This document shows, one piece after another, positions 5,706 to 57,440 of a stretch of DNA of 64,000 nt. Source of the stretch: Candidatus Woesearchaeota archaeon (GTDB lineage: Archaea > Nanobdellota > Nanobdellia > Pacearchaeales > GW2011-AR1); the NCBI GenBank assembly GCA_964573625.1, contig CAZNJU010000001.1, positions 513,050 to 577,049 on the forward strand, in the 5' to 3' direction. How positions within the stretch are numbered: position 1 is the stretch's first letter; each line of letters begins with the position of its first letter. Position numbers and translations under genes: made by a program. The notes beneath the pieces were generated by a model. The model did no database searches, was not told the DNA's origin, and saw only the letters and a program-made list of their open reading frames with translations.

Positions 5706-5729
5706 AATATCTTTCCAACAAAAGAGTAG

Positions 5730-16144: not shown

Positions 16145-17269
16145 ATGAAAAAGAGTCAGGTTACGCCTTGGGATGTTTCAGGCTCAGTTGACTATGAAAA
16201 CATTATAAAAGAGTTCGGTGTTGAAAGAATAACTCCTGAACTTTTGAAAAGAATTGAGAAACTAGCTGGCGAAGCTCACTTCATGTTAAAAAGAGGAATA
16301 TTCTTCGCACATCGAGACCTTAAATGGTTGCTTGATCAGTACGATGCAAAAAATAATTTCTTCCTATACACGGGTCGCGCACCATCAGGACAAGTTCACC
16401 TAGGACATCTTTTACCCTGGGTGTTTACCAAATGGCTTCAAGACGTATTCAACGTTGAACTCTGGTTTCAATTTCCTGATGAAGAAAAGTTTCTTTTTAA
16501 GCAAGAAATGACTTTTGATGAAACGCAGAAATATTTACAGGAGAATATGCTAGACGTTATCGCTCTTGGGTTCAATCCTAAAAAAACGTTTTTCCTTATT
16601 GACACGAAACACGCAAGTTTAATGTACAAAGAGGCATGTAAAGTCGCGAAGAAAATTACTTTTTCTCAAGTTAAATCATCATTTGGAATGACTGATCAGA
16701 ATAATATCGGTTCTATTTTCTATACGGCTATGCAGGCAGTTCCTGCGTTTCTTCCTTCGGTCATTCAGAAAAAAGAAATTCCGTGCCTCATTCCACATGC
16801 TATTGATCAGGATCCACACTTCCGATTAACAAGAGATATTCTTCCTAAGCTCGGACATCACAAACCTGCTTCGATTCAGTGTTTGTTCCTTCCACCATTA
16901 ACAGGTGATGGAAAGATGTCTTCTTCGCAAGAATCGTCTGCAATTTACACGACTGATACCCCTGAAATGGTAAAGAAGAAGATAAACAAGTACGCATTTT
17001 CAGGCGGTAAAGACACGCTAGAAGAGCATAGAAAACACGGAGGCAATCCGGACATAGACATATCATTCCAGTATTTGCGAATGTTTCTCGAACCAGACGA
17101 CAAAAAACTCGCTAAGATTGAAAAAGAGTATCGTTCAGGCAAGCTTCTTTCGGGAGAGTTAAAAGCAATTGCAATAGATAAGATAAATGATTTTCTTAAA
17201 GACCATCAGAAAAAAAGAGAAGCCGCAAAGAAGAAAGTAGACGACTATATCTTAAATGTTAAGTTCTAA
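16145..17269 (+). CDS. trpS: tryptophan--tRNA ligase (archaeal/eukaryotic type)
   Basis: 374 aa with the HIGH-type motif GQVHLGHLLPW and the KMSKS-type motif KMSSSQ. Confidence 0.9.
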   Translation: MKKSQVTPWDVSGSVDYENIIKEFGVERITPELLKRIEKLAGEAHFMLKRGIFFAHRDLKWLLDQYDAKNNFFLYTGRAPSGQVHLGHLLPWVFTKWLQDVFNVELWFQFPDEEKFLFKQEMTFDETQKYLQENMLDVIALGFNPKKTFFLIDTKHASLMYKEACKVAKKITFSQVKSSFGMTDQNNIGSIFYTAMQAVPAFLPSVIQKKEIPCLIPHAIDQDPHFRLTRDILPKLGHHKPASIQCLFLPPLTGDGKMSSSQESSAIYTTDTPEMVKKKINKYAFSGGKDTLEEHRKHGGNPDIDISFQYLRMFLEPDDKKLAKIEKEYRSGKLLSGELKAIAIDKINDFLKDHQKKREAAKKKVDDYILNVKF

Positions 17270-34365: not shown

Positions 34366-34914
34366 TTACGCTTTGACTGGAAGAAGTTTCTCAGTTCTAA
34401 CATTTACTCTTCCAGGTATTTTAGACTTGATCATTCCCATTGCTTCACGCGCAACACGCGCAGCATTCTCATCTGCACACCAGACTACAAATATATCTGA
34501 TCCACTACGTACAATTGCTGCACGACCTTCAATGTTTCCAAAGGAACGGCTCATACCACTCGATAATCTGTCAGCTCCTGCTTGGGCAGCCATCTTATTA
34601 TTGCGAAGAAGGTGATGCGGATGTACTTTTACTTGTAGGTAGTATGTGTTTGGAAGTTTTTCATCTAGAACTTTAGTAAGAAACTGTCTTGAAGCCTCAA
34701 TTGCATTGTCTCGTATTTGTACTGATTGACCTACAATCATACGCATTGCTATAGGGTATTTGCCTTCATGAAATGCTTTTTGGTTACCTGCAGTATATTT
34801 GACTACTTTATTCTGAGGGACTACTTTAATGTAAGATTTTCCCTTGGCTCGTGATACACGAGTGTATGGTCGAGCATATTTCTTTGAATACGTAAGTGCT
34901 TTTCGTAGGGCCAT
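34366..34914 (-). CDS. rpl10e: 50S ribosomal protein L10e (uL16, archaeal/eukaryotic form)
   Basis: 182 aa. MALRKALTYSKKYARPYTRVS...VQIRDNAIEASRQ...KVHPHHLLRNNKMAAQAGADRLSSGM matches the archaeal L10e consensus. Confidence 0.9.
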   Translation of the reverse strand: MALRKALTYSKKYARPYTRVSRAKGKSYIKVVPQNKVVKYTAGNQKAFHEGKYPIAMRMIVGQSVQIRDNAIEASRQFLTKVLDEKLPNTYYLQVKVHPHHLLRNNKMAAQAGADRLSSGMSRSFGNIEGRAAIVRSGSDIFVVWCADENAARVAREAMGMIKSKIPGRVNVRTEKLLPVKA

Positions 34915-35307
34915 TTATTCTCCTTCTGCAAGGCTCTCAAGAATTTTTCTTCTTTTTCCTGCCTTGTCTGTTTTTATCTTATCAGCCTTAGGAGTACCTG
35001 TATATCTAACAGGTTCTACCACGATAACTTGCTTATTAGTTAGTCGTCCTAAATGCATTTTAACTTCTGCATGACTCATGGTCGCTTTATTTCCTGTAGC
35101 CACATAGCCATCCTCTTTAACATCATAGACAATTCCCGCATAATGTCTTTTTTGAGGCAAACTAAAAGTGCGGATTCCAATAGCTCGACTTGGTTCAGTT
35201 GCTCTTTTTGATATTAGTAATCGCGATTCAGGATGGTATTTTAACTCACCTATACCTAAGGCATTAAGATATTTCTCTGCATTTCGTCTTCTTCCTTCGT
35301 AGTCCAT
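34915..35307 (-). CDS. hypothetical protein between L35Ae and L10e (possibly RNA-associated)
   Basis: 130 aa, basic, and translationally coupled on both sides within a ribosomal-protein operon. No family assigned. Confidence 0.4.
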   Translation of the reverse strand: MDYEGRRRNAEKYLNALGIGELKYHPESRLLISKRATEPSRAIGIRTFSLPQKRHYAGIVYDVKEDGYVATGNKATMSHAEVKMHLGRLTNKQVIVVEPVRYTGTPKADKIKTDKAGKRRKILESLAEGE

Positions 35308-35600
35308 TATTTCTTCGCTCCCTTTTTCTCAGTTGGCGTAACAGCATCTAATACTTCAATATTAGTAGTAATAGCCTGTCCTGGTAGACCTTTTTCAAAG
35401 ATAGCTCTAACAATTCCTTTGTTACCGTGAGCATCAGAAACGACTCCTTTGATTTCCTTGCCAGCAGGACTCTTCCAGACAACATGTTTGCCTGCAAGTT
35501 TCTTAGCTTCCTCTCGGGAAGTTGCACCTAAATCAAGAAGATAATGTCTTTCATTAATGCGATGTCTTCCGCGTCGAAATTGTACAACGATACCTTTCAT
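35307..35600 (-). CDS. rpl35ae: 50S ribosomal protein L35Ae
   Basis: 97 aa. GKEIKGVVSDAHGNKGIVRAIFEKGLPGQAI matches the L35Ae core (GKI.G.V...HG..G.VRA.F..GLPGQA). Confidence 0.8.
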   Translation of the reverse strand: MKGIVVQFRRGRHRINERHYLLDLGATSREEAKKLAGKHVVWKSPAGKEIKGVVSDAHGNKGIVRAIFEKGLPGQAITTNIEVLDAVTPTEKKGAKK

Positions 35601-35628
35601 GTTATGTGGTGACGGATAGAAATCGGGG

Positions 35629-35636
35629 TTTTTAAA
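35629..35636 (-). promoter_or_regulatory. putative archaeal TATA box for the L35Ae operon
   Basis: TTTTAAAG is centred ~30 bp upstream of the L35Ae start at 35600 (minus strand). An imperfect second copy of the same 18-mer lies at 35683..35700. Confidence 0.35.
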
Positions 35637-35640
35637 GCTT

Positions 35641-35658
35641 TACGAATCCTCAGATTCG
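35641..35658 (-). terminator. hairpin plus oligo-T downstream of the 591-aa gene
   Basis: ACGAATC-CTCA-GATTCGT is a perfect 7-bp inverted repeat. The minus-strand transcript has a T-run (revcomp of cttttttagggcc) between the stop at 35698 and the hairpin. Confidence 0.35.
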
Positions 35659-35697
35659 TGAGGCCCTAAAAAAGTATTCTTTTTTAAAGCTTTACGA

Positions 35698-37473
35698 TTA
35701 AACAAAAATGTCAAATTCTCCACGTTCTTTACGGACAGTTTCAAGCGCTTTATGACTTAGTTTTAGTTTAGTTCTATCTTTCGTCTTAGTAAGTGCTTCC
35801 TCAAGCTTTCTCTGTTCAACTTCTTCAAGTTTAGCCCCTATCTTGTAGACTTTGCCTGCCTCAACAAAGAACGTTCCTTCATCAGTCAACACGAGTTCAG
35901 CTACCTTCCCATTATACCCTATCTGTACAATTCCACGCTCGACAAGTGCAATTTCCTTGCGTTGAGAGTATTCAATAAGAACATTCATCAAATCGCTCGC
36001 ATTGCGACGTACTTCATCAAGATCATTTTGAGTAAACTTCTTGGAGCGAGCTTTTTTCCTGATTTCACTAACACTCTTAAGTATCGGACTATATCTAGGG
36101 GAAATCTTTCCTTCCTTCACAAGTTTCTTTTCAAACAATTTCATTAATGCGTCTTGCGGATGATTTCCCAGAATATTCTTTAAGATAGAAAACATCTCTT
36201 CATACATTGCATCAGCAGAGTGTTGCGCAACACGTGATTCAAGTTTTTGTCGCAAGACTTTCAATTTTTTATCATACTCGCCAGCTTCTTTAAGCAAGGT
36301 ATCAATTTCCTCACCCGTAATAGAAGTTAACTTTCCGTGTTCATAGTCTTTGTACAACTTAACCGTCTTTTCAAGTATCTTGAGCTCTTTAAGACCCATA
36401 ATTTTCTCTTTATGAACGAATTCCTTCTTAACGTCTTCCACAATAGTCTTAGGAACAGGTGGTGCTTGACCAGCAAGCATCATTAATGCTTGCGTAGGTG
36501 TAACAACTCCCCAATAAATATCAATCATTGCATCCATCAGTCTCCGTTTAACAAGTGTATCATTCTGGTCGCCATACTTCATGAACGTATCAACTGCTTC
36601 TGGACTTGGTTTAATTTTACCCATTTTAAGCAAGAGTTTCCATGGTAAGAATGTCCCTCTATCATACATTGGAATACCATCACGAATAAACGTAAAGATA
36701 ACTGGAGTCGCATCCTTAACAGATTGCCAGAAGTCAGTCAGTAAATATACCTGCACGTTGAGCACGTTCTTAACACCTGCAAGTGCTGTCGCTTCTTTTA
36801 TGTAATCATAAATATATCCTCGCAATCTTTCAAGAAGCTGCAAACGAGGCATCTTCTTTACGTCAGTGTCATCAATAACTACGAACGTATCTACATCGCT
36901 ATCTTTGTCTGCAGTACCTCGGACAAGACTTCCACCAACGGCATACGTCGCAACATATTTCTCGAATTTTCTCAATACTAATGTTTTATGAATATTCGCA
37001 AGTCGCAACGTCCCTAAAAATCCTTTATCATGTAGAGGGTAGCTAGCGGCAATCGCATCTAAGAATTCAAATTTACTATCCATCCCATAATTCCAAACAT
37101 CAACTGGTGTTTTAATGTGCACCCAAACGTTGTGCTTTCCTTCCTTCACAAGTTCAAGAATACCTGGCTTTATTTTCTTTGCAATGTTCTTGTATTCATC
37201 TTCCGGAATGATGAACATCACATGCAACGGCTTACGAGCAATTTCTTCAGCGAGTAATCCTTCGTCTTCCTCAAAAGCCTTAAATGAAGGAGCAGGAAGT
37301 ATAGAAAGTGCAAGTGCAAATGGAAATTTCTTAACCAGTTTTTTCTTAAACTCTTCAAGCTCACCTTTCAGCTTGTCAAATTCTTCATTACCTTCTGAAG
37401 TTTGAATAGGTGGTTGAACCGCGTATTTATCGGCTGAAGAAATATGGTTTCCAAGGGTGTGCTTCTCTTCCAT
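35698..37473 (-). CDS. large nucleotidyltransferase-domain protein
   Basis: 591 aa with a central minimal-NTase motif VGGSLVRGTADKDSDVDTFVVIDD and long helical flanking regions. Confidence 0.5.
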   Translation of the reverse strand: MEEKHTLGNHISSADKYAVQPPIQTSEGNEEFDKLKGELEEFKKKLVKKFPFALALSILPAPSFKAFEEDEGLLAEEIARKPLHVMFIIPEDEYKNIAKKIKPGILELVKEGKHNVWVHIKTPVDVWNYGMDSKFEFLDAIAASYPLHDKGFLGTLRLANIHKTLVLRKFEKYVATYAVGGSLVRGTADKDSDVDTFVVIDDTDVKKMPRLQLLERLRGYIYDYIKEATALAGVKNVLNVQVYLLTDFWQSVKDATPVIFTFIRDGIPMYDRGTFLPWKLLLKMGKIKPSPEAVDTFMKYGDQNDTLVKRRLMDAMIDIYWGVVTPTQALMMLAGQAPPVPKTIVEDVKKEFVHKEKIMGLKELKILEKTVKLYKDYEHGKLTSITGEEIDTLLKEAGEYDKKLKVLRQKLESRVAQHSADAMYEEMFSILKNILGNHPQDALMKLFEKKLVKEGKISPRYSPILKSVSEIRKKARSKKFTQNDLDEVRRNASDLMNVLIEYSQRKEIALVERGIVQIGYNGKVAELVLTDEGTFFVEAGKVYKIGAKLEEVEQRKLEEALTKTKDRTKLKLSHKALETVRKERGEFDIFV

Positions 37474-37545
37474 ATCAAAAATACTCAGGAGACGTATTTA
37501 AAACTATCCTGTTGAGATTTATATACTCGTGAACGATATCTGTTT

Positions 37546-38082
37546 GTGAAAAGAGAGCAATTCGATCGCAAGTATTTGGGCGAGTTCGTATATGGGGGAA
37601 TTGATGGGACAGTCACTACTTTTGCAGTCGTTGCAGGTTCAATGGGTGCATCACTAAATGCAGCAATTATTCTTATTCTAGGTTTTGCAAATTTGTTTGC
37701 AGACGGCTTCTCAATGGCTGTCTCAAACTATCTATCAGTTAAATCACAATTCGAACTTAAACGAGGGAAGAAAGACACGACCATTGATGAAGAGGCAAAA
37801 CACCCGATAAAAACCGCCCTAGCAACATTTTTTTCATTCCTTATAATTGGCTTTATCCCTCTGAGCTCATATGTGGCTGCTCTCTTTATTCCTTCCATTA
37901 ATGCCCATAAAGAAGTATACTCTATCGCATGTACTGCACTTGCACTTCTTATCGTTGGCGCCGTTAAGGGCCGTGTTGTCAAGAAGCATGTCGTGCGTTC
38001 AGCCCTTGAAACGCTTCTCATCGGAGGAATCGCAGCGGCAGTTGCCTTCGGCGTAGGCTATTTCTTGAAAGGACTTGTGTAA
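37546..38082 (+). CDS. VIT1/CCC1-family membrane protein (short form)
   Basis: 178 aa. [19 protein letters not shown] is the VIT-family signature; 4-5 TM helices. Confidence 0.65.
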
Positions 38083-38232
38083 ATGGCTGAACAGTTAATC
38101 ACTTGCGATCTACAGACAGAAGGTGAAAACATGTATATCTGTGAAGCGTGTGGTTCACGTTTGCAAGCTGAAAAATGTAAGCTCATGTGTAAGCGTTGCG
38201 GGTACTTTCGCTCATGTAGTGATTTATTTTAA
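38083..38232 (+). CDS. small zinc-ribbon protein (not in ORF track, <60 aa)
   Basis: The ATG at 38083 is 1 nt after the VIT-gene stop. Translation MAEQLITCDLQTEGENMYICEACGSRLQAEKCKLMCKRCGYFRSCSDLF has CxxC...CxxC pairs. Confidence 0.4.
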   Translation: MAEQLITCDLQTEGENMYICEACGSRLQAEKCKLMCKRCGYFRSCSDLF

Positions 38233-38483
38233 TCTCTAGAGAAGTCAGGATTTTTATGAAAAATACATTTGTCACATCTCTGTATATCCAGACACCACAA
38301 CTGCAACGAGTATGTATCACAAACCATTCGTCTTGATTCACTTGGTGCAGCTTCTCCTGAAAGACTATTACTGCAATAAGGACCAACGTGATCCTCTCTC
38401 AAGTACGGACATCGTTCCTCACGAGAGGTTGCTTGTATAAGGTGAATAGCTAATTTTTCGCCAGAGTTACTTGTTCGAACCAT
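38229..38483 (-). CDS. Cys-rich small protein (uncertain)
   Basis: 84-aa ORF with 7 Cys. It overlaps the 3' end of the small zinc-ribbon ORF on the opposite strand. Confidence 0.3.
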   Translation of the reverse strand: MVRTSNSGEKLAIHLIQATSREERCPYLREDHVGPYCSNSLSGEAAPSESRRMVCDTYSLQLWCLDIQRCDKCIFHKNPDFSRD

Positions 38484-38557
38484 ACCAATTTAGAATGTAG
38501 GGGCTTTAAAAATCTACTCGTGAAAAAGATTAAAAAGCACATCGCGTTAGAAAAAGA

Positions 38558-38833
38558 ATGTCTCAAGAAAACCCTCGTAATAATGCTGGAGGTCTTGAAA
38601 TAATTGTTCTAGCAGTCATTGGCACCCCATTTATGGTATTAGGGGCACTTGTTGAAGCTCCACGATATCTGCGTATTTTAGGAAGTCGTGCCGCAGCATC
38701 AATATACAATCCTACTCTTGGTCGCCTTACAGAAACCAAATATACTCCCGCTAAAATATTTCCCGTTGAAGATAATGAATTCTCACCTAGCGACAACGAT
38801 TATTTAGTCAAAGGATATATCTCTAAGAAGTAA
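38558..38833 (+). CDS. small membrane protein
   Basis: 91 aa with one TM helix (LEIIVLAVIGTPFMVLGALV). Confidence 0.35.
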   Translation: MSQENPRNNAGGLEIIVLAVIGTPFMVLGALVEAPRYLRILGSRAAASIYNPTLGRLTETKYTPAKIFPVEDNEFSPSDNDYLVKGYISKK

Positions 38834-39197
38834 CTGAATAGTTATTCACAAGTGTGGATAATGCTTGATCCTCATGTCCATCAGTTGCAATCGGTTTGAG
38901 GTTAACTTCCCGTAGGAATAATCCGAGCGCTTCTTCAACTAATCCATCTGTCTGAGAAGGTTTTTGTCGAACGTCTATTCGAACATAGAATCCATGAGGG
39001 TTAGTTGATCCGCTAAATGCAGCTCGCTCGCCACCCGTTGCACGGTCTAAGTTTGCACCTATCAAGATATTTGATCGAGAATACTTTTCCTGAGCGATAT
39101 GTTGAGCCGCCCCAATTTTATCTAATAGTCCTGAAGTTGCAGAAAGATTTGAAGAGTCATTTATTCTATATCCAAATTGAACATATCTCTCATCCAT
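38823..39197 (-). CDS. hypothetical protein
   Basis: 124-aa ORF. Confidence 0.4.
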   Translation of the reverse strand: MDERYVQFGYRINDSSNLSATSGLLDKIGAAQHIAQEKYSRSNILIGANLDRATGGERAAFSGSTNPHGFYVRIDVRQKPSQTDGLVEEALGLFLREVNLKPIATDGHEDQALSTLVNNYSVTS

Positions 39198-39345
39198 AAA
39201 TCAAGACGCGTTATCCCACTTATAAATTTAATTATGTTTGAGCAGCTAGAATGCAGTTACCTGGCTCTCAAAGAAGAGTATCTCTTGCACATGAGATCTA
39301 TATGTTAAAGCATACATTTTTAAGCTAATTCTAAATTTTTAGTAT

Positions 39346-39873
39346 ATGCATTTATATCATTGGGTGCCTGAAAAGATGATTGGAGATGTACTCCAGCCGC
39401 TCAATACACTTAGAGAAACTCGCCCGGAGCTATATGCAGAATATGTCAAAAAGTATCAGGGACGTGAAGAATTGCTCAAAGCAAGAGTCCCGATTTTAGG
39501 GTGTTTATGGAATGATGTATTGCATCTGACTCCGGTTAATCCGCAAGAGGTGATGAAAGTATACCGAGATACTGGTCTGAAAGCCCGAACAACTCGTTTC
39601 TTCAAAATATCTGATTCTTCTTTGAAAAGAGACGAATTAGTCATTTACAAACACACCAAGATAGCCAATGGTGATTGGAGTATTGATCCGAGCGAAGTAT
39701 TAAGATATAGTCCTGCTACAGCAAAAAAATTCTCGCATTTCCCTGATGCGGCAAGACAATATTTCGAACGAGAAAAATCAGCAGGCAGAAGACCATTATT
39801 ATTTGGATTCGTTCCGCATGTTTTATACAGAGGAGAAATAGATATTTCTAAATGTGAAGTTATTGAAGCTTAA
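39346..39873 (+). CDS. hypothetical protein
   Basis: 175-aa ORF. Confidence 0.4.
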   Translation: MHLYHWVPEKMIGDVLQPLNTLRETRPELYAEYVKKYQGREELLKARVPILGCLWNDVLHLTPVNPQEVMKVYRDTGLKARTTRFFKISDSSLKRDELVIYKHTKIANGDWSIDPSEVLRYSPATAKKFSHFPDAARQYFEREKSAGRRPLLFGFVPHVLYRGEIDISKCEVIEA

Positions 39874-39912
39874 CTCGCTCTCAAGCGCATTAAGCGTTTC
39901 CGTTCTGCAGAG

Positions 39913-40509
39913 CTATTCAGATGTTTCTTCATCTCTTGATATGTGACCCGCAACTTGCTCTAATTCAGGCATAGACTGCAGTATCACATCGTAGAGTCTT
40001 TGAGAAGTACTGGACATACGTACATAATCCTCATATTCAGGTTCTTCTTTAAATGGTTTACCTCTAAGAAGGATTCCATCTTTATAATTGGCTCGAGCTT
40101 TATCAAATAGGTACAAATCTAATTTTTTACTGAAATCCTCGAGATGTGCAGTTTCTAGTCCTAACTCTCTCTCCAGTCCAACACGAGTTCGAGCAAGAGC
40201 CTCCCGTTTTAAAAGTATTTCCGGACTCATTCCTAACAAGTTCGACCACTCCTCTACTGAAGCTTTAGCTGCAGAATCAAAGATTTCACTTCGCTCTACA
40301 TATATTTCTCTATAGCGTTCTCTAAGTGGAACGTGTTGCTGTAAGAGCGCTCTTACAGAACGTTCTATTTCCCGCACATCTTTCCCGAAGGGAGCAAGAT
40401 GCTTCAAGCCATCACTTACAAAGTTATCTCGATTATATCGTAAACCGTATTCTAAGTCAGCAAAACTTTCAAGTTGATCTTCCGTTATCCCGTAGAAGTT
40501 ATAATCCAT
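39913..40509 (-). CDS. hypothetical protein
   Basis: 198-aa hydrophilic ORF ending 35 bp from the tRNA-like fragment. Confidence 0.4.
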   Translation of the reverse strand: MDYNFYGITEDQLESFADLEYGLRYNRDNFVSDGLKHLAPFGKDVREIERSVRALLQQHVPLRERYREIYVERSEIFDSAAKASVEEWSNLLGMSPEILLKREALARTRVGLERELGLETAHLEDFSKKLDLYLFDKARANYKDGILLRGKPFKEEPEYEDYVRMSSTSQRLYDVILQSMPELEQVAGHISRDEETSE

Positions 40510-40543
40510 AGAAAATCAATAAATTAGTCCTATAAAAAGTTAG

Positions 40544-40590
40544 TGGCCCTGAAGAGAATCGAACTCCTGACTCCTCGGTGTAAACGAGTA
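40544..40590 (-). other. tRNA 3'-half-like fragment (putative integration att core)
   Basis: Reverse complement ...CGTTTACACCGAGGAGTCAGGAGTTCGATTCTCTTCAGGGCCA has a T-stem AGGAG/CTCTT, a T-loop TTCGATT and a 3' acceptor strand CAGGGCC plus discriminator A. No complementary 5' acceptor strand (GGCCCTG) lies within 120 bp. Confidence 0.4.
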
Positions 40591-40645
40591 TAATAAAAAG
40601 CTTACTACTCGTTAAATATATAAACTAGACTCTCGTCGATAAGGA

Positions 40646-41887
40646 ATGTATCAAGAAAGATATGAAAGAAAGAAGAAACTTCTGCTAGTAGATAAAAAAA
40701 TCAATGAGAAAAATCGTAGAATAATGGGACGATTTCTTGAACATCAAGAATACAGGCTGAAAAGAAGGAACGGATTACCGCAAGTAGATGAAAGAAGCTA
40801 CAAAACACTTGATTATTTCTTAGGACGACTACGAAATCTTAATACGTGGTTCAAAAATAAAGAGTGGTCCTCTCTAAAGAAGGCAGATATCAAACAAGTA
40901 ATTGATGATTTAGAAGATGGAGTTATCAAAACAGCTAAAGGTGAGCGGTTCAAAGACCGCAGTTTGTATTATCAGATGATGCAAGGCAAGCTATTCGCTT
41001 TGATAGGCAAAGATAAAGATGCGCGAGACTTCATCAAAGAACATGAAATTATTGGCCGTAAGAATGATAATCAAGTCCGATTTATCTCTGAAGAAGATTT
41101 CAGGAAAATTGTTGATTGTGCTATAACTCCTGAACAGCGTTGTCTTTTGTGGCTTGCTTTTGATATAGGGGAAAATATCGGTTCTTTGCTCGAACTTGAA
41201 AAGCATGACTTTAAACGACAGACCAATGAAAATACCCGAGAACCGGAGTACCTGGTAATCTTGAGCAAAGATAAGCTAAAAAGAAGTAGGACTCCAAGAA
41301 GCGAGACAACCAACTATACAGAAACCGTGCGGTATCTTGATATCGTCTTAGGAAATCTGAAACCTTCTGAAAAAGTAATTTCTAATCGATTTATGAAAAA
41401 TAAGAACTTAAGTGAACTTCACAATTCAGATAAGCTCTTTAAATTTAGTGAAACTGCTGCCACGCTCTTTCAAAGGAGAGCTGTTGAACGATCTGGAGTC
41501 CGATGCCAGCCAGAAGGTCAGAAAGTCACGTGGAAAGACCTACGTAGCTCTATGAGTTGTGACTTACTTAAGAAAGGGTGGACACGTGACGAAGTAAATG
41601 CTAGACTAGGCCATAAACCAAGTTCTCGTATTATTGATCGTTATATCAATTTTTTAGCTTTAGATCGTAATAGACCTAAGCAAAAGGTGCATGAAAGCAA
41701 CCTTCGTAAACTTGAAAGCGAGCTTGAAAACACTAAAGACTTAAGTAAATTACAAGCTCTTCGTATCGCCAAACAACAAGAAGAGCTAGATCATCTTAGA
41801 ATACTCTACGATAAGAAGTTAGAGGACATTGCGGAAGAGTTGAGCGCTATAAGCAAGAGTGCACAAAAGGTAGCAGTCAAGAATTAG
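40646..41887 (+). CDS. int: tyrosine-type site-specific integrase
   Basis: 413 aa with the C-terminal catalytic signature RLGHKPSSRIIDRYINF (H-x-x-R ... Y) and an N-terminal SAM-like region. Confidence 0.7.
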   Translation: MYQERYERKKKLLLVDKKINEKNRRIMGRFLEHQEYRLKRRNGLPQVDERSYKTLDYFLGRLRNLNTWFKNKEWSSLKKADIKQVIDDLEDGVIKTAKGERFKDRSLYYQMMQGKLFALIGKDKDARDFIKEHEIIGRKNDNQVRFISEEDFRKIVDCAITPEQRCLLWLAFDIGENIGSLLELEKHDFKRQTNENTREPEYLVILSKDKLKRSRTPRSETTNYTETVRYLDIVLGNLKPSEKVISNRFMKNKNLSELHNSDKLFKFSETAATLFQRRAVERSGVRCQPEGQKVTWKDLRSSMSCDLLKKGWTRDEVNARLGHKPSSRIIDRYINFLALDRNRPKQKVHESNLRKLESELENTKDLSKLQALRIAKQQEELDHLRILYDKKLEDIAEELSAISKSAQKVAVKN

Positions 41888-41966
41888 ACAATTTTGAGGC
41901 TATTTAGTCTGCTCTCTTATCTCCTATACAATTTAAGCAATTTCTATTCAGCAGTACATATACCCC

Positions 41967-42161
41967 TCAATCCCAATCAATAACTTTTTCGTCTTTAATT
42001 TCTCTTATGGATCGTATTATGTCTGATTCTGGAATATCGTCTTCCCCATCTACAATAGCAATAGTACAACCATTCAAATAATCTCCAGTAAATATTTTAT
42101 TGATTAACTTTTTTCCGTATTTATGTTCCAATTCTTTCCTTTTCATATCAACTCTCCACAA
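41967..42161 (-). CDS. small hypothetical protein
   Basis: 64-aa ORF coupled to the HEPN gene (14-bp overlap). Confidence 0.3.
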   Translation of the reverse strand: MWRVDMKRKELEHKYGKKLINKIFTGDYLNGCTIAIVDGEDDIPESDIIRSIREIKDEKVIDWD

Positions 42162-42654
42162 TAACCTTTGTTTCAGAAATTACTTTCTGCGCAAGTTTCA
42201 CTAATTGAGTATAGAGATTGTCATTAAGGGATAAGCTTGTTCCATACTGATACTTTTCGCGTATCTTAACGCTTGTTTCAGAATCATCCGTGATGCCTAA
42301 CGCTGCAATTTTATCAAGTGTATCTTGTGTGAGGTTAATTTTCTTTTCCTCAATAAGAGAGGCAATCAAGGCAAACGTGCATTCTTGATTATGTGATTCA
42401 TAGCCAAACTTGGAAGCAATGGCCAGTAAGCTATGATACATGGCATAAAAAACCGTACTTGCGCTAATATCTGAGAAATTTCCATCTTTCAAATACATAG
42501 TAGCTTTCAAAAAATGCTCTGCCTTTTTCACATGTTCGGTAGATTGCTCTTTATTTGGCTTTATCTTGCGCAGACCTCTATGCATGCTTCCTTCTTTGAG
42601 CTCTTTCTCAGCTTTCCTCAAACACCAATCTAATTTGTTTTTTGCGTGACTCAT
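42148..42654 (-). CDS. HEPN-domain protein (toxin-like)
   Basis: 168 aa, helical, with HEPN-like conserved positions. It overlaps the upstream NTase gene by ATGA. Confidence 0.6.
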   Translation of the reverse strand: MSHAKNKLDWCLRKAEKELKEGSMHRGLRKIKPNKEQSTEHVKKAEHFLKATMYLKDGNFSDISASTVFYAMYHSLLAIASKFGYESHNQECTFALIASLIEEKKINLTQDTLDKIAALGITDDSETSVKIREKYQYGTSLSLNDNLYTQLVKLAQKVISETKVIVES

Positions 42655-43232
42655 GTTAGTACCTCAATTAGCGTATCGTGTCCCGATACAACCAAGCCTT
42701 TGATCGCATTGAGTACAACCTTATCAGGTTTAGCGACGTTCTTCTTTAAATCTTCTTTGGTTTGATAGACCGGATGAATTTTTTTATCGTTTATGGAGTT
42801 AATCTCTTCAATTCCTTTCTTAATCGCATTAAAATTCTTATCATTAGAAACAATGAGGGCATCAATATCGCCTGCCTCTTCATGTTTTTTTAAAACTGAC
42901 CCAAAGAGAATAACCAGTTCAGCATGTTTGATTTTTTTCAATTCGGTGATCCAACGTTTCAGGTACGGATGCGCACTTTCTGCTTCCTTGGCAAGAACAA
43001 ATCGCACATAATTGCGCACATAGTCATTTGAGAGATTAAGCTTGAAAATATGGGCGTTCCCGATCTCTTCAACGCTAAGGATATCTTCTTTCTGAAGCTT
43101 TTGTGCTATTTTCCATGCTCCCATGGGGCTTATATCTAGAAACTTGGCAATCGTGTTCGCATTGTAGTGGACTTCGGGACTTTTCAGTATCGTTGCAATC
43201 ATTCGCATCTCATTATCCGTTACGTTTCTCAT
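42651..43232 (-). CDS. winged-helix + minimal nucleotidyltransferase (MNT, antitoxin-like)
   Basis: The track ORF is 42651..43352. The likely start is the Met at 43232 (MRNVTDNEMRMI...). An N-terminal wHTH (ANTIAKFLDISPMGAWKIAQKL) is followed by the NTase motif LVILFGSVLKKHEEAGDIDALIV. Confidence 0.6.
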   Translation of the reverse strand: MRNVTDNEMRMIATILKSPEVHYNANTIAKFLDISPMGAWKIAQKLQKEDILSVEEIGNAHIFKLNLSNDYVRNYVRFVLAKEAESAHPYLKRWITELKKIKHAELVILFGSVLKKHEEAGDIDALIVSNDKNFNAIKKGIEEINSINDKKIHPVYQTKEDLKKNVAKPDKVVLNAIKGLVVSGHDTLIEVLT

Positions 43233-43360
43233 ATAAACTCCTAGTATATAGTTATAAACTAGCGATATATAAGCTTTATGGTTTACTTGAGTATTCATCT
43301 TTGTATTTATGATTAGAAAAGAATAAATAGACAGGATGAGTAAGAAACGCATAGCGTTTC

Positions 43361-43678
43361 TTAGTTGTTAGGTTCTTTGTTTTCTTTCCCAATCATAAAT
43401 ATCATGGGAATCATTCCCGAATCTTTCTCCATCTGCTCAACTTCTTTCTTCAGATCCTTATGAGAGGTATAGACTTTCATACAATACACAAAACTACCTT
43501 GTTTATCTTTAAGATAAGGGAATTTCTTAAGAATATCTTTCTTTAAGCGCAAGGTCGTCCACGCTTGATCTCCTTCGCTATAAGATAATTTGCCTTTGAC
43601 CTCTAAATTTTCATGCAGCGGGCTAAGGAACATCACCTCCGACTCTTCTTTATGGAGCGGATGCTTATTTGTAGCCAT
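43361..43678 (-). CDS. hypothetical protein
   Basis: 105-aa ORF. Confidence 0.4.
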   Translation of the reverse strand: MATNKHPLHKEESEVMFLSPLHENLEVKGKLSYSEGDQAWTTLRLKKDILKKFPYLKDKQGSFVYCMKVYTSHKDLKKEVEQMEKDSGMIPMIFMIGKENKEPNN

Positions 43679-43775
43679 CTACCTAATTTCTAGTTAGATG
43701 ATTCTATATAAAGGTTTCGCTTGGATTCGCTCTAGCAACCAAGATTGCCTAACGAAACCTTTTAATACCTTAGAG

Positions 43776-43979
43776 ATGATAACTCCCGTTATGGGAAGAC
43801 GTTATAAGCACACTATCACGGTTCGAGTACCTGATTCAGTCTATGAAGCAGTCATGAAACGTGTTAAGCATAAGCGACTCAAGTATCCTTCTTATAGCGA
43901 CGCCGAAGTCATCCGCAAGGCTTTAGTCAAGCATCTTAAGGAAAAGGGATTGTTGGATAAAGATAAGACTTATCTCTAG
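43776..43979 (+). CDS. ribbon-helix-helix (CopG-like) DNA-binding protein
   Basis: The track ORF is 43698..43979. The internal Met at 43776 begins MITPVMGRRYKHTITVRVPDSVYEAVMK...SDAEVIRKAL, i.e. a beta-strand followed by two helices in an RHH pattern. Confidence 0.45.
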   Translation: MITPVMGRRYKHTITVRVPDSVYEAVMKRVKHKRLKYPSYSDAEVIRKALVKHLKEKGLLDKDKTYL

Positions 43980-52814: not shown

Positions 52815-53623
52815 TTCATGGAAATATTTTAGATATGTTTTCTCCAGAAGATTTGACTGATAAGTCTCAGGGTAAAAATGCTAATGAAAGATTAGCTCCC
52901 CGTTATCGACGTAGTTACTCGGCAAGTCCAGTGAATATTCTTATTAGGGCAGAAGAAAGTGATCATTTGAGGAACTTAACTGTAAATCTTAGAGACTTCT
53001 TGCGTGAAAACATGAATATGGCCCAATATGGATTTCTACATAAATTACTCGGCAAGAATTGGAGCGAGAGATTACGCCTTCCCCTAGAATTTAGGGATAT
53101 GGCTTGTGAGGAATTTATGGTTTTTATCAATGAACGCTTGGGGGAAATACAGGAAAAAGTTGAAATCTTACGCGAACATTACGATAATACTGGATTTGAC
53201 GGGCGTTCAGTCCCAATACAGGAATTCATTCAAGTTCCGTTTAATATGGCTTCGAGGGATAAAATTCTCAAAACCTATGAAGACGTTCGCCAGGGAAAGA
53301 CGTCACGATACCCTTATGCTTTCTTCCACCCTAGAAATACAAGAGTGCCAAAGATTCTTACCCGCCATTTAGTCGATGATATCTTAGGTTTACCTCATAC
53401 GGAATCCCTTCCAGACAAGTTAAGACCCTCTCACTTTAGTGAATATCAATTAGGAGGAATGCTAGGGCAGTATTTTCGCGGTAATATCGAAAGAGCATTA
53501 CAACACGCGTACAGTCTAGAAGAATTCCCTCAATTGTATAGAAGAGGATATCAAACAAGGGATGTGCTGCACGAGGTATTCCAAGGCCTCAATAATAAAC
53601 TACGGGAAAAAAAGAATGAATAA
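52811..53623 (+). CDS. hypothetical protein (operon gene 5)
   Basis: 270-aa ORF with an ATGA overlap to the upstream gene. Confidence 0.45.
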   Translation: MIHGNILDMFSPEDLTDKSQGKNANERLAPRYRRSYSASPVNILIRAEESDHLRNLTVNLRDFLRENMNMAQYGFLHKLLGKNWSERLRLPLEFRDMACEEFMVFINERLGEIQEKVEILREHYDNTGFDGRSVPIQEFIQVPFNMASRDKILKTYEDVRQGKTSRYPYAFFHPRNTRVPKILTRHLVDDILGLPHTESLPDKLRPSHFSEYQLGGMLGQYFRGNIERALQHAYSLEEFPQLYRRGYQTRDVLHEVFQGLNNKLREKKNE

Positions 53624-56600
53624 TCAACAACTACTTGCTCGATTTACAATTCCTGAGCTTAAAGCAGCAGCAGACCTAAAGAAATATACAGTTAACTTGA
53701 AGAAAAAATTTAAGAGGGCTGAAAAGAAAAACTCAACAAAGCTTAGAGAAATAGCTACGCTGGAAATTGAAGAAGAAATAAAAAGAAGGAAAAGCGAACC
53801 GGATTATAATCCTTTTTTTGACGATGTATCTACCACAGAGATAATTTCAGAATTAGAAGAAAGACTTCTTAAGCCAGATTCTGTAACGGGTAGACTTAAT
53901 TTGAAGGCAATTCACTCTTTCATCCAAGGGTCATATTATGAAGGCAAAATTTCCCCCAAATTGGAACATCATCACCCTCGCTCAGAATATAGGGCCAAGT
54001 CTAAATCTCTTGTTTCTAGTAATGCAGTAGAAGATGATTTACAAAAAGTGATAGATGAACAGAGAAAAGATGCTCGGTTAGCGAACAATCCTTTTTTAGC
54101 TTATTTTATCGCCAGGGATGTCCAAGGATCAAATATATGGAATAAATTTGGTTTAAGGGGTTTGTTGAGAGAAGTCAAAGAGCGCACAGGATTGGCACCA
54201 GTCTCTTGGAAAGGGGGGGCCATGTCCTATGACGGATTTTTTACGCTTCAAGAGATCTTAACTAAAGACATAAAATCTGGAGAATTCAAGTATTTTGTTC
54301 CTCAAGGAGTTTATTTGATGGCGCAAGACTTACAAAAAAGAGGAACAAAACTTAATGTTTCTGTAACCTCTTTCAATTTAAATTCAAGGAAAAAACTAGC
54401 TGCTCTTTTAGAAGAAGATGAGTCTAAGATAAAAAGAGATTGGAAACCGCACAGATTTGACATGACTTTAGACGCAATAGAAACTTCTCTTGATTTTATG
54501 AGGAGGAAATATCAAGAGAATCCAGATGCATTTTTCGAAAGATACGGCTCTCCTCAAGGAACTAATAATCTAGTTGAGGATATGAAGCCAGAACGCGAAT
54601 TTAAAACTAATCTTAGAAAAGTTCATACTCTGCTTGGAGATGGCGAATCTCTTTCCAAAATGCTTGACATAGAAGATGAGCGATTTAAGACGAAATGGAA
54701 CCCTTCGGTAATCCAGATATCTCCTTCTGAGCTAGAGGTTGTAAGGGATATTTTGCATCGTTCATTGAATGAGGATAAAAATAAATTTTATGCCGTTTAT
54801 GGTTCTGCTTTCGGCACTGTTATTCTCAGTAAGGAGCTTGCAACAAAGGGATTGGATATCAGTCCCGCAAGATTATCTTCTGTTTTGGTTAATACGGATA
54901 AAGCTTCAAGCATTCTTGGAATTAGGGATGATGAATTTGAAAAAAGGTGGAATGTCAAAGAGTTTAGCGATGAATATCCTATTTTCGATACCACAATGAA
55001 AAGACTTAAAGAGGCTTATAATAAAGATCCCGATACATTCTTTTCTCGTTATGGTTGTGATATAGGGGCCTTCAATGTCGCTCAAGACCTCAAAGGGCAA
55101 GGGGGTGAAAAGTCAATTAAAATGCAAGTTGTTTCCAGAATTATAAGGGAAGGACAACTTATTTCACGTATTTTAGACATTAATGATGATCGGTTCAAGA
55201 CTCACTGGCACCCATCACAAATAGTTCCAGATTACGATGATGCCGAAAAAGTATTAGAATTTATGCGCGCCAAGCACAAAAAAAACCCAGATGCGTTTTT
55301 TGGAAGGTATGGTTCTAAACTCGGGCTCTATTATTTGATGAAAGATTTAAGCGACGTACCTGAATTGAGAACGAAACCAGATCAAAATTTAAAAGGTATT
55401 GCTTATTCCGGAGAAAGATTGTCCCGTTTACTTGGAATTAAAGATACAAGATTTTCAAGCGCATGGCATCCTCGAAGTCTAACGCTTAATTCACAGCAAG
55501 TCGATCAAGTTGGAGAATTTCTTAAGGACAAATATGATTCTAATCCTAAATCTTTCTTTAAACGATACGGAGCAGAAGACGGGCTTTTACAACTATCGCG
55601 AGATTTGGAAGAAGAGCAAGGCGTTAGATTATCTTCAAGTAGGTTAGGAAATATACTTATGGATGTCGAGGCTACACAACAGCTAATCGGAATAAATGAC
55701 CCTAATTTTGATAGTAAATGGAATATTCGTTCAATTCAGGTTAAAAACGGTATCCCCGATCAAGTTGGAGAATTTCTGAGAACTCAGTATGATCAAGATC
55801 CAACACGCTTCTTTGTGCGCTATGGTGGAAAGACTGGCCAAGTTTTAATGTTAGAAGATCTTCGTAAAACTGGCATTAAAATCCCCCTTATGCAATTAGG
55901 GTCACTAATTGGAAAGTCAAGTCTTGTTTCTAGATTAACTGGCATCCCCGAGTCTGAATTTGAAGGACGTTGGAGAAGCAGGCATGTTGGAATGAAAAGA
56001 ACTCATATTTCAAGAATTACAGATATATTAACAAATGCTTATCACGAAGATCCAGAGTTGTTTTTCGAAAGATACGGTGGGAAAGAAGGAATAGTCAACT
56101 TAGCCGAGCGGCTCAAAGAAGACGATGTTCATCCCAATTTACACTTCATATCAAATCTCATTGGAGATCCAGAGACCGTACAGGAGTTAATGAAGGTTGA
56201 AGATGATAGATTCCTTGGTGAATGGGCTCCTAGGAAGGTCAGTATATCTTCGCGACAATTAAGACCTACTATTGATTTCTTACGACGTTCCTATTTCGCT
56301 GACAGTAAAAGATTCTTTGATCGATACGGGTCTAGGGCAGGAATCTATAATTTGGCAATTGATTTAAATGAAGGGGGCATGTTGGCAAGTGGAGATATGG
56401 AGAGAATATACGATTTAGTTGCTCGGCCTTCCATTCAAGAAGTTTTAGGTATTCGCGATCCGAAATTTGGTGAAAAGTGGAATCCTGCTAACATTCCTCT
56501 CAATCTCAATGAGTTCCGTGCTATTTCTACTCATCTTAAGGAGCAATTCGATAAAAATCCAGATACCTTTTTCGATTATTATAGAAAGCCTTTAAGATCG

Positions 56601-57440
56601 ATTATATTAGGTAAGGAAGCTGAAGCCTTAGGTATCAATGAGAATCCTCCTGTTTTTTCAGTAATTTTAAATGATGGTAAATTTGTTGGAGAATTAGTGG
56701 GATCTGCTGATAAACGATTTGCAGACACCTGGCCTCGTAAAGCTTATGTAATGCTACAGGGAGCTTATCCGACCATGAAGAATATGGAGCAATCTATTGG
56801 CCAAGGATTAGAAAGGATGGCTGAAAGTTGCAGTTTACCTTCTATGGGTAGTCCATTAGGTAAAGATGAAAGAGAATATCTCGCTTTACGATATGGTCTA
56901 CGCATGGTTAATGAGAACACAGCACACCATGTTGTTGAATTGTATGCAGGTGCCAAACAAAAAGCAATTAAGAAAAATATTAAAGAAATACTTACACAAG
57001 ACGCCAAAGATATGAGAGAGTTATCTTCTATTAAAAACTTCAAAGAAGTTTCAGAATTTGGTGATGAGGCATTTACTAATTTAGCAGGACATTTGCTTTA
57101 TAGTTTTGACCCGTCTATTAGAGCAGCTGCAGGACATAAAATTCTTGAACTATATACTCCTACCTTTCAACGAATAATTGCTAATCGCAACATTCCAGAT
57201 ATCTCAAAAGGATATGATACGTTTAGTAAATACTGTGAAAACTTTGATATGTATGCTATTAAGTTTGGAGGGCTAAAGGAGAGAAAGCAGGTATGCCCCG
57301 TACCCTTGCCTGGTAGAGTATACAGTATTATTCAATCTATTGGAAGTGGTCGCTACTATGATTGGAGCGATAATGTGATGAGATCTCTAGATGTTAACGA
57401 TGATAAAGAAGGAGGTTATCTTCACGAAATAATTAGTTAA
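53616..57440 (+). CDS. giant tandem-repeat protein (about ten ~85-aa repeats + unique C-terminal domain)
   Basis: The track ORF is 53562..57440 (1292 aa). The likely start is the Met at 53616 (MNNQQLL...), an ATGAATAA overlap like gene 2. Repeats recur with the core pattern [LI]G[IV]xDxxFxxxWxP ...(~40 aa)... NPDxFFxRYGxxxG. Confidence 0.6.
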   Translation: MNNQQLLARFTIPELKAAADLKKYTVNLKKKFKRAEKKNSTKLREIATLEIEEEIKRRKSEPDYNPFFDDVSTTEIISELEERLLKPDSVTGRLNLKAIHSFIQGSYYEGKISPKLEHHHPRSEYRAKSKSLVSSNAVEDDLQKVIDEQRKDARLANNPFLAYFIARDVQGSNIWNKFGLRGLLREVKERTGLAPVSWKGGAMSYDGFFTLQEILTKDIKSGEFKYFVPQGVYLMAQDLQKRGTKLNVSVTSFNLNSRKKLAALLEEDESKIKRDWKPHRFDMTLDAIETSLDFMRRKYQENPDAFFERYGSPQGTNNLVEDMKPEREFKTNLRKVHTLLGDGESLSKMLDIEDERFKTKWNPSVIQISPSELEVVRDILHRSLNEDKNKFYAVYGSAFGTVILSKELATKGLDISPARLSSVLVNTDKASSILGIRDDEFEKRWNVKEFSDEYPIFDTTMKRLKEAYNKDPDTFFSRYGCDIGAFNVAQDLKGQGGEKSIKMQVVSRIIREGQLISRILDINDDRFKTHWHPSQIVPDYDDAEKVLEFMRAKHKKNPDAFFGRYGSKLGLYYLMKDLSDVPELRTKPDQNLKGIAYSGERLSRLLGIKDTRFSSAWHPRSLTLNSQQVDQVGEFLKDKYDSNPKSFFKRYGAEDGLLQLSRDLEEEQGVRLSSSRLGNILMDVEATQQLIGINDPNFDSKWNIRSIQVKNGIPDQVGEFLRTQYDQDPTRFFVRYGGKTGQVLMLEDLRKTGIKIPLMQLGSLIGKSSLVSRLTGIPESEFEGRWRSRHVGMKRTHISRITDILTNAYHEDPELFFERYGGKEGIVNLAERLKEDDVHPNLHFISNLIGDPETVQELMKVEDDRFLGEWAPRKVSISSRQLRPTIDFLRRSYFADSKRFFDRYGSRAGIYNLAIDLNEGGMLASGDMERIYDLVARPSIQEVLGIRDPKFGEKWNPANIPLNLNEFRAISTHLKEQFDKNPDTFFDYYRKPLRSIILGKEAEALGINENPPVFSVILNDGKFVGELVGSADKRFADTWPRKAYVMLQGAYPTMKNMEQSIGQGLERMAESCSLPSMGSPLGKDEREYLALRYGLRMVNENTAHHVVELYAGAKQKAIKKNIKEILTQDAKDMRELSSIKNFKEVSEFGDEAFTNLAGHLLYSFDPSIRAAAGHKILELYTPTFQRIIANRNIPDISKGYDTFSKYCENFDMYAIKFGGLKERKQVCPVPLPGRVYSIIQSIGSGRYYDWSDNVMRSLDVNDDKEGGYLHEIIS
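54430..56950 (+). repeat. intragenic tandem repeat array (~255-bp period, ~10 copies, diverged)
   Basis: The protein-level repeats (e.g. LDIEDERFKTKWNP, LGIRDDEFEKRWN, LDINDDRFKTHWHP, LGIKDTRFSSAWHP, IGINDPNFDSKWN, TGIPESEFEGRWR, MKVEDDRFLGEWAP, LGIRDPKFGEKWNP, VGSADKRFADTWP) map at ~250-260-bp spacing. They are diverged at the DNA level. Confidence 0.6.

Follow-up and report, generated by a model that had tools for sequence, protein, structure and literature searches.

In classical genomic islands and in elements of the pNOB8 type, the attP site carries a partial copy of the target tRNA, the gene is regenerated upon integration, and a direct repeat of 40–50 bp results (PMC4383910; PMC8371274). 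The integrase of SSV1 cuts at the borders of the anticodon loop, with the loop forming the 7-bp overlap and the stem forming the dyad (PMC8371274). In the tRNA-dependent lysogeny of actinobacteriophages the core is short, the host tRNA is not reconstructed, and lysogens need a phage tRNA of the same isotype (PMC10865867, Guerrero-Bustamante & Hatfull 2024). Mobile elements have also been proposed, in a study of Caldiarchaeum, to deliver introns and to scatter tRNA fragments (PMC3293823). Here we analyze a 64,000-nt stretch of archaeal DNA (contig CAZNJU010000001.1; hereafter the window) in which a piece of a valine tRNA gene, tRNA-Val(UAC), lies beside the gene of a tyrosine-recombinase-like integrase (int). 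We consider it likely, with a probability of roughly 0.8, that positions 40544–40603 are one junction of a mobile element integrated in a DPANN (Pacearchaeota/Woesearchaeota-like) archaeon, that its insertion site was the anticodon loop of the chromosomal gene for tRNA-Val(UAC), and that the interrupted gene was not rebuilt.

The tRNA-Val fragment and its chromosomal setting

The window itself contains the tRNA gene's 3′ half, an element arm, an intact integrase gene and a left flank that is syntenic with relatives (Table 1). Read on the minus strand, the fragment is T-ACTCG-TTTACAC-CGAGG-AGTC-AGGAG-TTCGATT-CTCTT-CAGGGCC-A. It includes a T arm, a 3′ acceptor strand and a discriminator and lacks the 5′ acceptor strand and the D arm, all of which the original prediction had recognized from the sequence. 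The anticodon arm had been listed among the missing parts as well, yet it is present: a 7-nt loop with the anticodon UAC (Val) is closed by a stem of four Watson-Crick pairs plus, in the Rfam alignment, an A27.G43 mismatch, and is followed by a variable loop of 4 nt (AGTC). The break in the gene thus falls at the anticodon arm itself rather than between this arm and the T arm. The Rfam score of the fragment (18.1 bits) is below threshold, and neither ARAGORN nor Rfam at its gathering threshold called a tRNA there, the only tRNA called in the whole window being a tRNA-Lys at 975–1049. We found no 5′ acceptor strand (GGCCCTG) on a usable strand and no D arm anywhere in the 64 kb, and the 5′-half sequence of related tRNA-Val genes was absent from the window even when three mismatches were allowed. 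A 45-nt stretch of the fragment occurs a single time in the window (0.00 chance occurrences expected); the second copy of a ~45-bp core that had been anticipated was not found within these 64 kb. A complete intron-containing or permuted tRNA gene around the fragment was considered and ruled out, as the fragment is flanked upstream by the arm and then int, and downstream by a run of T and the next gene.

In order to compare the fragment with intact genes, we scanned species-representative genomes with the 25 nt of its T arm and acceptor strand, which yielded 15 loci in Pacearchaeota and Woesearchaeota (loci in related genomes are given L numbers). The 25 nt were identical at all 15. Twelve of these loci are intact, intron-less tRNA-Val(UAC) genes of 71–72 nt with the form GGCCCTGTAGTCTAGTGGCAAAAC-N-NCTCG-TTTACAC-CGAGN-AGTCAGGAGTTCGATTCTCTTCAGGGCCA; two (L003 and L006) are tRNA-Val(UAC) genes with a canonical 37/38 intron, missed by ARAGORN and found by Rfam; and the remaining locus, L008, has a further 3′ fragment, which begins at the loop and lies beside a contig end. 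The intact genes from these 14 related genomes (12 intron-less, two with an intron) match the fragment over positions 28–73, and the similarity ends at about 27–28. Upstream of that point the window has AAGCTTTTTATTAT in place of the D-arm region, and the element arm in place of positions 1–26. Position 27 covaries with position 43 in the intact genes (A-T, G-C, C-G), whereas the window combines G43 with A27. Because relatives with G43 have C27, the ACTCG strand (40585–40589) comes from the element and not from the host.

Many tRNAs of these archaea contain introns and measure 100–160 nt, including those at L003 5291–5393 and L006 6055–6157 and other tRNAs in L006, L008 and L021. ARAGORN at default settings misses them and Rfam reports them. 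tRNA counts based on ARAGORN are consequently too low for the Pacearchaeota clade, and intron-containing tRNA-Val genes are overlooked.

The left side of the window places the fragment at a native tRNA-Val locus. Between 31.8 and 38.2 kb the window is collinear with L005 (pyruvate phosphate dikinase, a ribosomal L16 family protein, a 591-aa nucleotidyltransferase and VIT1), and its left flank is also syntenic with L004, L014–L016, L028 and L037. At the corresponding distance L005 carries an intact tRNA-Val(UAC) that faces the same way, with a tRNA-Gly(GCC) on its 5′ side; tRNA-Gly(GCC) is likewise found 5′ of tRNA-Val in nine other loci. Judged by this arrangement, L005 can act as the empty-site reference, which supplies the comparison with an island-free relative that had been suggested as a check. 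The synteny indicates that the left side of the window is chromosome, that the fragment sits where the tRNA-Val gene belongs, and that the missing 5′ half and the tRNA-Gly should lie past the inserted DNA. At the window locus, the empty site would have the CTAACTTTTTATAGG flank joined to a whole tRNA-Val gene. Among the proteins encoded in the window is a threonyl-tRNA synthetase that has the archaea-specific editing domain; the G+C content is ~39%, and the closest syntenic relatives are metagenome-assembled genomes of Woesearchaeota and Pacearchaeota, which together mark the source as a DPANN archaeon.

The association of a broken tRNA-Val gene with this integrase recurs. We read nine junctions adjacent to int, namely that of the window and those beside eight integrase homologues (55–73% identity) from DPANN archaea, and at all nine the int gene starts ~55–100 bp from a tRNA-Val(UAC) half whose break falls at the anticodon loop. 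The 3′ half adjoins int and points away from it in three of them (the window, L018 and L044), whereas in the other six (L021, L023, L025, L040, L042 and L047) the 5′ half adjoins int, points towards it and is followed directly by element sequence. A flip of the element body, bounded as it is by inverted ends, could account for the two polarities. The arm AAG(C/G)TTT(A/T)TATTA is conserved beside the loop in L018, L021, L023 and L025 as well as in metagenome junctions, and in closer relatives the arm and five variable bases, which sometimes mimic the stem, lie between int and the loop. In addition, six contigs from independent assemblies (L001, L022, L026, L027, L043 and L045) end ~80–100 nt upstream of int, in or near the tRNA piece. 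Together with the synteny to L005, the tRNA-Val half found beside int in the window and at all eight homologues bears out the proposal that the fragment marks the boundary of an element integrated into a gene for a tRNA, with chromosome to its left and the element extending to higher coordinates. Remnants of 5′ halves were observed upstream of the junctions in L025 and L047.

Complete elements and distal junctions in related genomes

Both junctions, a 7-bp repeat, terminal inverted repeats and a complete tRNA-Val(UAC) near the integrase-distal arm, usually with a 37/38 intron, were seen in relatives only. Two of these are complete: L023, on the same contig as L032, with 10,844 bp, and L047, with 10,468 bp. 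At the int-proximal end of L023 a host 5′ half that starts with GGACCTA, GGACCTATAGGCTAGTGGCAAACCA-CCTCG-TTTACAC, is followed by TAATATTAATATAAACCTTAT, int and ~20 small genes. At the distal end there is an element-borne tRNA-Val(UAC) gene (20608–20713; Rfam 51.4 bits) with a 35-nt intron after position 37, then a 58-nt spacer, ATAAGGTTTTTATTAATATTA, and a 3′ half, TTTACAC-CGAGG-ACTCC-GCAGTTCGATCCTGC-GTAGGTCC-A, that ends in TAGGTCCA. L047 has the same layout, with an intron-less element-borne tRNA-Val at 16891–16961. In both elements the host 5′ and 3′ halves lie at opposite ends and their acceptor strands are complementary, as expected if a single gene gave rise to both. The 7-nt loop TTTACAC, and no more, forms the direct repeat, neither junction holds a whole tRNA, and the termini are inverted repeats with 20/21 matches in L023 and 30/40 in L047. 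The 7-nt repeat and the inverted ends suggest an attP of the form arm-TTTACAC-inverted arm, a simple dyad site.

This architecture bears directly on the explanation first offered for the fragment, a duplicated att-site copy with the full tRNA regenerated elsewhere. In a classical island of this kind, attP would bring along its own version of the tRNA 3′ half, the far junction would have a regenerated, full tRNA-Val, and 40544–40590 would be the displaced direct repeat. Such is the usual architecture of islands that target tRNA genes (PMC4383910; PMC8371274), and the fragment, the adjoining int and the chromosomal flank on the 3′ side fit the layout, with the far end of the element lying outside the window. 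In L023 and L047, however, the repeat is 7 bp, the int-proximal junction carries a 5′ half that is not continued, the arms are inverted copies of each other that hold no tRNA 3′ half, and the elements carry a separate, whole tRNA-Val of different sequence. With complementary host halves at the two ends and a gene that is not rebuilt, these relatives make a classical island a very unlikely account of the window. Since they repeat only the 7-nt loop, a genome search for a full tRNA with a 3′ half identical to 40544–40590 is predicted to fail, and such a failure would not refute integration.

Distal junctions from additional relatives indicate what the element brings with it. A search with a degenerate junction pattern gave 12 metagenome loci, and eight distinct distal 3′-half junctions could be read, with L023/L032 counted as one element and L047 as an extra. 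Six of the eight (L023/L032, L028, L029, L030, L035 and L036) have a tRNA-Val(UAC) within ~800 nt, and L047 adds one more. In L028, L030, L035 and L036 a complete tRNA-Val(UAC) lies 23–37 nt upstream of the arm, with an intron in the first three, and in L029 it lies 760 nt upstream; in L031 only a tRNA 3′ end is visible, 37 nt upstream, at the contig edge. Downstream of an intron-containing tRNA-Val, L028 (minus strand, 1100–780) and L030 (190–520) each have two successive units of spacer, arm and tRNA-Val 3′ half, and the outer 3′-half unit of L028 is decaying, with one loop base lost and changes in the arm. From their sequence, these trails look like serial integrations, each one into the tRNA-Val that the preceding element had introduced. 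The tRNA-Val introns form a standard helix-bulge-helix-bulge-helix with the central helix UUUA/UAAA, and they split the loop, the integrase target, as TTTACA|C. We also asked if the chromosomal introns (L003 and L006) and those of the elements are homologous and found the case unconvincing, as they have nothing in common beyond AG...CTAAAAG ends, which are needed for the splicing motif.

Strand exchange by tyrosine recombinases takes place at the edges of a 6–8-bp overlap that is flanked by inverted binding sites. Applied to these elements, Int would bind the arms and the anticodon stem and swap strands across TTTACAC; attP would consist of two inverted arms around the 7-bp TTTACAC, and in the tRNA gene the stem would provide the dyad and the 7-nt loop the overlap. 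As attP would carry no tRNA half, the tRNA gene would not be rebuilt and the host gene would be inactivated, with the host 5′ half left at one element end and the host 3′ half (40544–40577 in the window) at the other. The element-borne tRNA-Val(UAC) would then supply the lost function, presumably also in the case of the window, and the intron in an element-borne copy would block its re-targeting by the integrase. The far junction of the window's element, a 5′ half followed by tRNA-Gly(GCC), would lie beyond 64000 and is expected to read GGCCCTGTAGTCTAGTGGCAAAAC-N-CCTCG-TTTACAC and then an inverted arm of about CGAGT-A-TAATAAAAAGCTT.

The original prediction had named a split or 3′-half tRNA gene as its alternative. 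At the DNA level the gene is indeed cut in two. Expression and trans-splicing of the halves are conjectural, and relatives have a replacement tRNA instead. A functional split tRNA, as in Nanoarchaeum equitans, would require the halves to be transcribed separately, paired through a trailer and a leader that the inverted terminal repeats of the element provide, cut by the splicing endonuclease behind position 37 of both loop copies, and ligated. The two ends do hold the halves of one gene next to inverted arms that are complementary, 10.8 kb apart in L023, and the halves of L023 co-fold into an acceptor stem, an anticodon stem, a symmetric 7x7 loop and a 20-bp helix (-44.4 kcal/mol, compared with -28.4 kcal/mol apart). 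By our reading of the fold, the 7 nt on each strand give the 4+3 geometry of a bulge-helix-bulge with cuts at 37/38. However, the central helix would consist of A-U, U.U, U.U and U-A, two of four pairs, whereas the natural introns of these tRNAs form all four (UUUA/UAAA), and complementary arms are an automatic consequence of recombinase core sites. Moreover, splicing is unnecessary at most of the complete distal ends, which have a whole tRNA-Val, and the outer 3′ halves of the trails are decaying. The only TATA-like box seen is better placed for int than as a promoter of the 3′ half. Distal ends without a nearby replacement tRNA (L033 and L037) would favor trans-splicing, as would a tRNA-splicing endonuclease gene in L047 (174 aa; 5629–6153, minus strand), although its position ~420 bp from the split tRNA-Val 5′ half is probably a coincidence. 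On balance we regard a functional split tRNA as very unlikely, and equally so the narrower version in which elements of the window's polarity that have no replacement tRNA near their arms still use the split tRNA-Val through a relaxed bulge-helix-bulge cut at 37/38. Were trans-splicing to occur, it would yield a mature tRNA-Val with host exons, here ending AGGAGTTCGATTCTCTTCAGGGCCA; integration by a tyrosine recombinase across a 7-bp overlap would then offer a direct route, open to observation, by which tRNA genes become split, and canonical 37/38 introns would follow once the interior of the element was deleted.

Several observations weigh against insertion into the anticodon loop followed by compensation, as proposed here for the window. 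Both complete relatives have the opposite polarity, with the 5′ half by int, and no complete element with the polarity of the window was seen. Two distal junctions, L033 (5′ half) and L037 (3′ half), have no tRNA within ~450–500 nt. The window holds a single junction: the 23.4 kb to the right of the fragment (to 64000) contain no 5′ half, tRNA-Gly, second arm or replacement tRNA, and the far end and the tRNA compensation of this particular element are inferred from relatives only. The residue of the integrase that aligns with the catalytic Arg-I is an invariant Asn, so that activity of the integrase is an assumption. Finally, contigs of one sample (SRR16481182) in the independent Logan assembly cover 39162–40572, 40544–43766 and 43742–63762, and the flank and element contigs overlap by only 29 conserved tRNA bases, a join that could be a chimera.

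The last point raises the prospect that an assembler joined contigs of an element and a chromosome through the 29-nt tRNA 3′ end, or else that the junction is an old one, stranded after a rearrangement that lost the other half. The Logan contigs do break exactly at 40544 and 40572, and no far junction was found within 23 kb. Nevertheless, these breaks are expected from a 31-mer graph in a community with many identical tRNA-Val 3′ ends, which form a common 31-mer node, and the repeat of only 29–30 nt is spanned by ordinary reads. The integrase open reading frame (ORF) is intact, the arm and loop are unmutated, and the flank lies exactly where the syntenic relative has its tRNA-Val, all of which makes an artefact or relic highly unlikely. 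A second break in the Logan contigs, at ~43742–43766, may reflect strain variation or a repeat.

The integrase and the presumed remainder of the element

The original prediction of an intact, 413-aa tyrosine recombinase was borne out, and the protein belongs to the element. Its ORF starts 56 bp from 40590, on the strand opposite to the fragment. The AlphaFold model (mean pLDDT 83) shows the two-domain fold of tyrosine recombinases and has lambda Int, XerA, IntI4 and Cre as its top Foldseek matches (E 2e-6 to 1e-4, probability 1.0). A sequence search of the family against solved structures gave marginal matches only, so that the fold search was needed, and Pfam PF00589 (Phage_integrase) scores 21.7 bits, below its gathering cut-off of 27.1, and covers residues 263–335 only; many homologues do have a precomputed PF00589 match. 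We found 596 homologues at E <= 0.001, which puts the family at a size of at least 596 proteins, and all those with an organism name are from Nanoarchaeota, Pacearchaeota or an unclassified archaeon, except P0025, which is named Lokiarchaeota. Across 24 family members K297, H323 and Y333 are invariant and R300 is nearly so (>=90%), and K297-D-L-R300, L-G-H323 and Y333 align with the HxLR, LGH and Y motifs of XerA. At Arg-I of the GxR motif, a weak HMMER alignment to XerA (4a8e) puts the invariant Glu176-Asn177 at the Leu-Arg position. The invariant residues R213, R215 and R218, near residues 176–177, could substitute for Arg-I, and the active site of the family, with Glu-Asn at the Arg-I position and KxxR for HxxR, may be an unusual arrangement.

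Given the usual spacing of archaeal promoters, the TATA-box-like sequence TTTATATA/TATATAAA upstream of int is a candidate promoter of a leaderless int mRNA (Table 1). We entertained the arm as an outward promoter for the 3′ half and dropped it by reasoning, since the spacing would start transcription inside the tRNA body. On the minus strand at 40601–40636, between the arm and the int start, lie the motifs CGACGAGAGTCTAG and AACGAGTAGTAAGC, both of which resemble tRNA positions 39–50 (CCGAGGAGTCAGG). They could be accessory binding sites or chance matches, and no equivalents were noticed when the sequences of L018 and L021 were read.

Table 1. Features of the window around the tRNA-Val(UAC) fragment and in the element to its right
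Feature	Coordinates	Strand	Basis
Chromosome 3′ of tRNA-Val, with genes for a ribosomal L16 family protein, a 591-aa nucleotidyltransferase and VIT1, and small ORFs	34366–40543		Collinear with L005
tRNA-Val(UAC) piece, position 27 to discriminator	40544–40590	minus	Sequence reading
Host-derived 3′ part of chromosomal tRNA-Val(UAC), positions 39–73 (CGAGG, AGTC, T arm, CAGGGCC, A)	40544–40577	minus	Sequence, alignment to intact relatives, synteny with L005
Discriminator A	40544	minus	
3′ acceptor strand CAGGGCC	40551–40545	minus	
T arm AGGAG-TTCGATT-CTCTT	40568–40552	minus	
Anticodon stem, 3′ strand CGAGG	40577–40573	minus	
Anticodon loop TTTACAC (40584–40578), putative 7-bp crossover (overlap) region	40578–40584	minus	The one sequence directly repeated at the two junctions of L023 and L047; break point in 9/9 Int-adjacent junctions
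Integrase-proximal element terminus: arm AAGCTTTTTATTA (40603–40591), T, 5-nt stem mimic ACTCG (40589–40585)	40585–40603	minus	Arm conservation and A27/G43 mismatch
TATA-box-like TTTATATA (minus) / TATATAAA (plus), centred ~26 nt upstream of the integrase ATG	40617–40624		Sequence reading
Integrase, 413 aa, tyrosine-recombinase fold	40646–41887	plus	Pfam, AlphaFold, Foldseek, conserved residues
Cargo beside int: 64-aa ORF, HEPN (42148–42654), nucleotidyltransferase (42651–43352), 105-aa and 93-aa ORFs	41967–43979		Pfam, tblastn
Presumed rest of the element, mostly ORFans	43980–64000		Pfam and PHROGs; extent presumed
Sigma-70-like protein, 249 aa	49389–50138	plus	Pfam Sigma70_r2 and Sigma70_r4; PHROG 351 RNA polymerase sigma factor, E 8e-26
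1292-aa repeat protein, no family match	53562–57440	plus	3 internal repeats, 765 nt (255 aa) spacing; family D1 at 54510, 55275, 56040
HerA/VirB4/TraG-like P-loop ATPase	61869–63941	minus	Pfam P-loop_TraG 1e-24, DUF87; weak PHROG terminase match

The region past the integrase, described at the outset as one of toxin-antitoxin and orphan genes, has a HEPN/nucleotidyltransferase pair at 42148–43352 (Pfam), and the two ORFs that follow it are common to the element in L021 (tblastn of 43361–43678 and 43698–43979 against L021/L022/L039, 32% and 83% identity). Further to the right, the HerA/VirB4/TraG-like ATPase suggests a conjugative or packaging module and an element that runs to the window end. 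The bacterial-type sigma factor is an unexpected finding inside a presumed DPANN archaeal mobile element. The G+C content falls slightly on the element side, from ~0.40 to 0.37. No replacement tRNA was detected in 40–64 kb even at permissive Rfam thresholds, and 43980–64000 has no similarity to the 5′-side tRNA-Val flank of relatives. With no 5′ half, tRNA-Gly or replacement tRNA up to 64000, the element of the window is at least 23.4 kb long, or the region is rearranged. The Logan contig that contains the MYG1 gene ends at ~63762, and a 690-aa ORF sought in Logan for an extension past the window end was not on record. Searches of IMG/VR with the integrase and with the junction pattern found nothing, and no free attP circle was recovered.

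Significance and comparison with known systems

A large, uncharacterized integrase family (at least 596 proteins) in ultra-small archaea seems to disrupt a tRNA gene that is probably essential and to bring its own copy. Possible outcomes are hosts that depend on the element and serial replacement of the resident tRNA-Val gene. In practical terms, a tRNA fragment beside an integrase in a DPANN genome is not to be taken for a classical att repeat, and island finders that seek matching direct repeats would miss both ends of such elements. The 37/38 introns that replacement genes often carry interrupt the exact target of the integrase, and intron-less copies were found already invaded, as the trails of halves attest. 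These elements thus provide material for two old proposals, namely that tRNA introns give protection from elements that integrate, and that mobile elements are responsible both for the spread of introns and for the origin of split tRNA genes.

Our literature search, the coverage of which was incomplete, found no description of this DPANN element family, and the new part is the family-level behavior seen in relatives. Compared with the split tRNAs of Nanoarchaeum equitans and Crenarchaeota and with the Caldiarchaeum model, the elements are alike in a gene divided near 37/38, in complementary flanks of the halves and in a recombinase-bearing mobile element as the agent, as the Caldiarchaeum model had proposed. 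They are unlike them in that separate promoters and trans-splicing are hypothetical here, the junction is not a canonical bulge-helix-bulge, and relatives have a replacement gene. With classical islands (Islander) and pNOB8-type elements they share an intact integrase gene by the att junction, a tRNA target and, as with SSV1 Int, the use of the anticodon loop as overlap and the stem as dyad; in contrast to these, the complete relatives have a repeat of 7 bp and a gene that remains split. The closest described system looks to be the tRNA-dependent lysogeny of actinobacteriophages, of which the DPANN elements would be an archaeal variant, sometimes with an intron. The likeness lies in the short core, in a host tRNA left unreconstructed and in an element-borne tRNA, all seen in L023 and L047. 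The differences are that the hosts here are archaeal (DPANN), that dependence of the host is hypothetical and no replacement tRNA was seen in the window, and that displaced halves form nested trails. Moreover, the core here is the 7-nt anticodon loop with long inverted arms, and the replacement gene lies right beside attP, often with a canonical 37/38 intron that destroys the target site.

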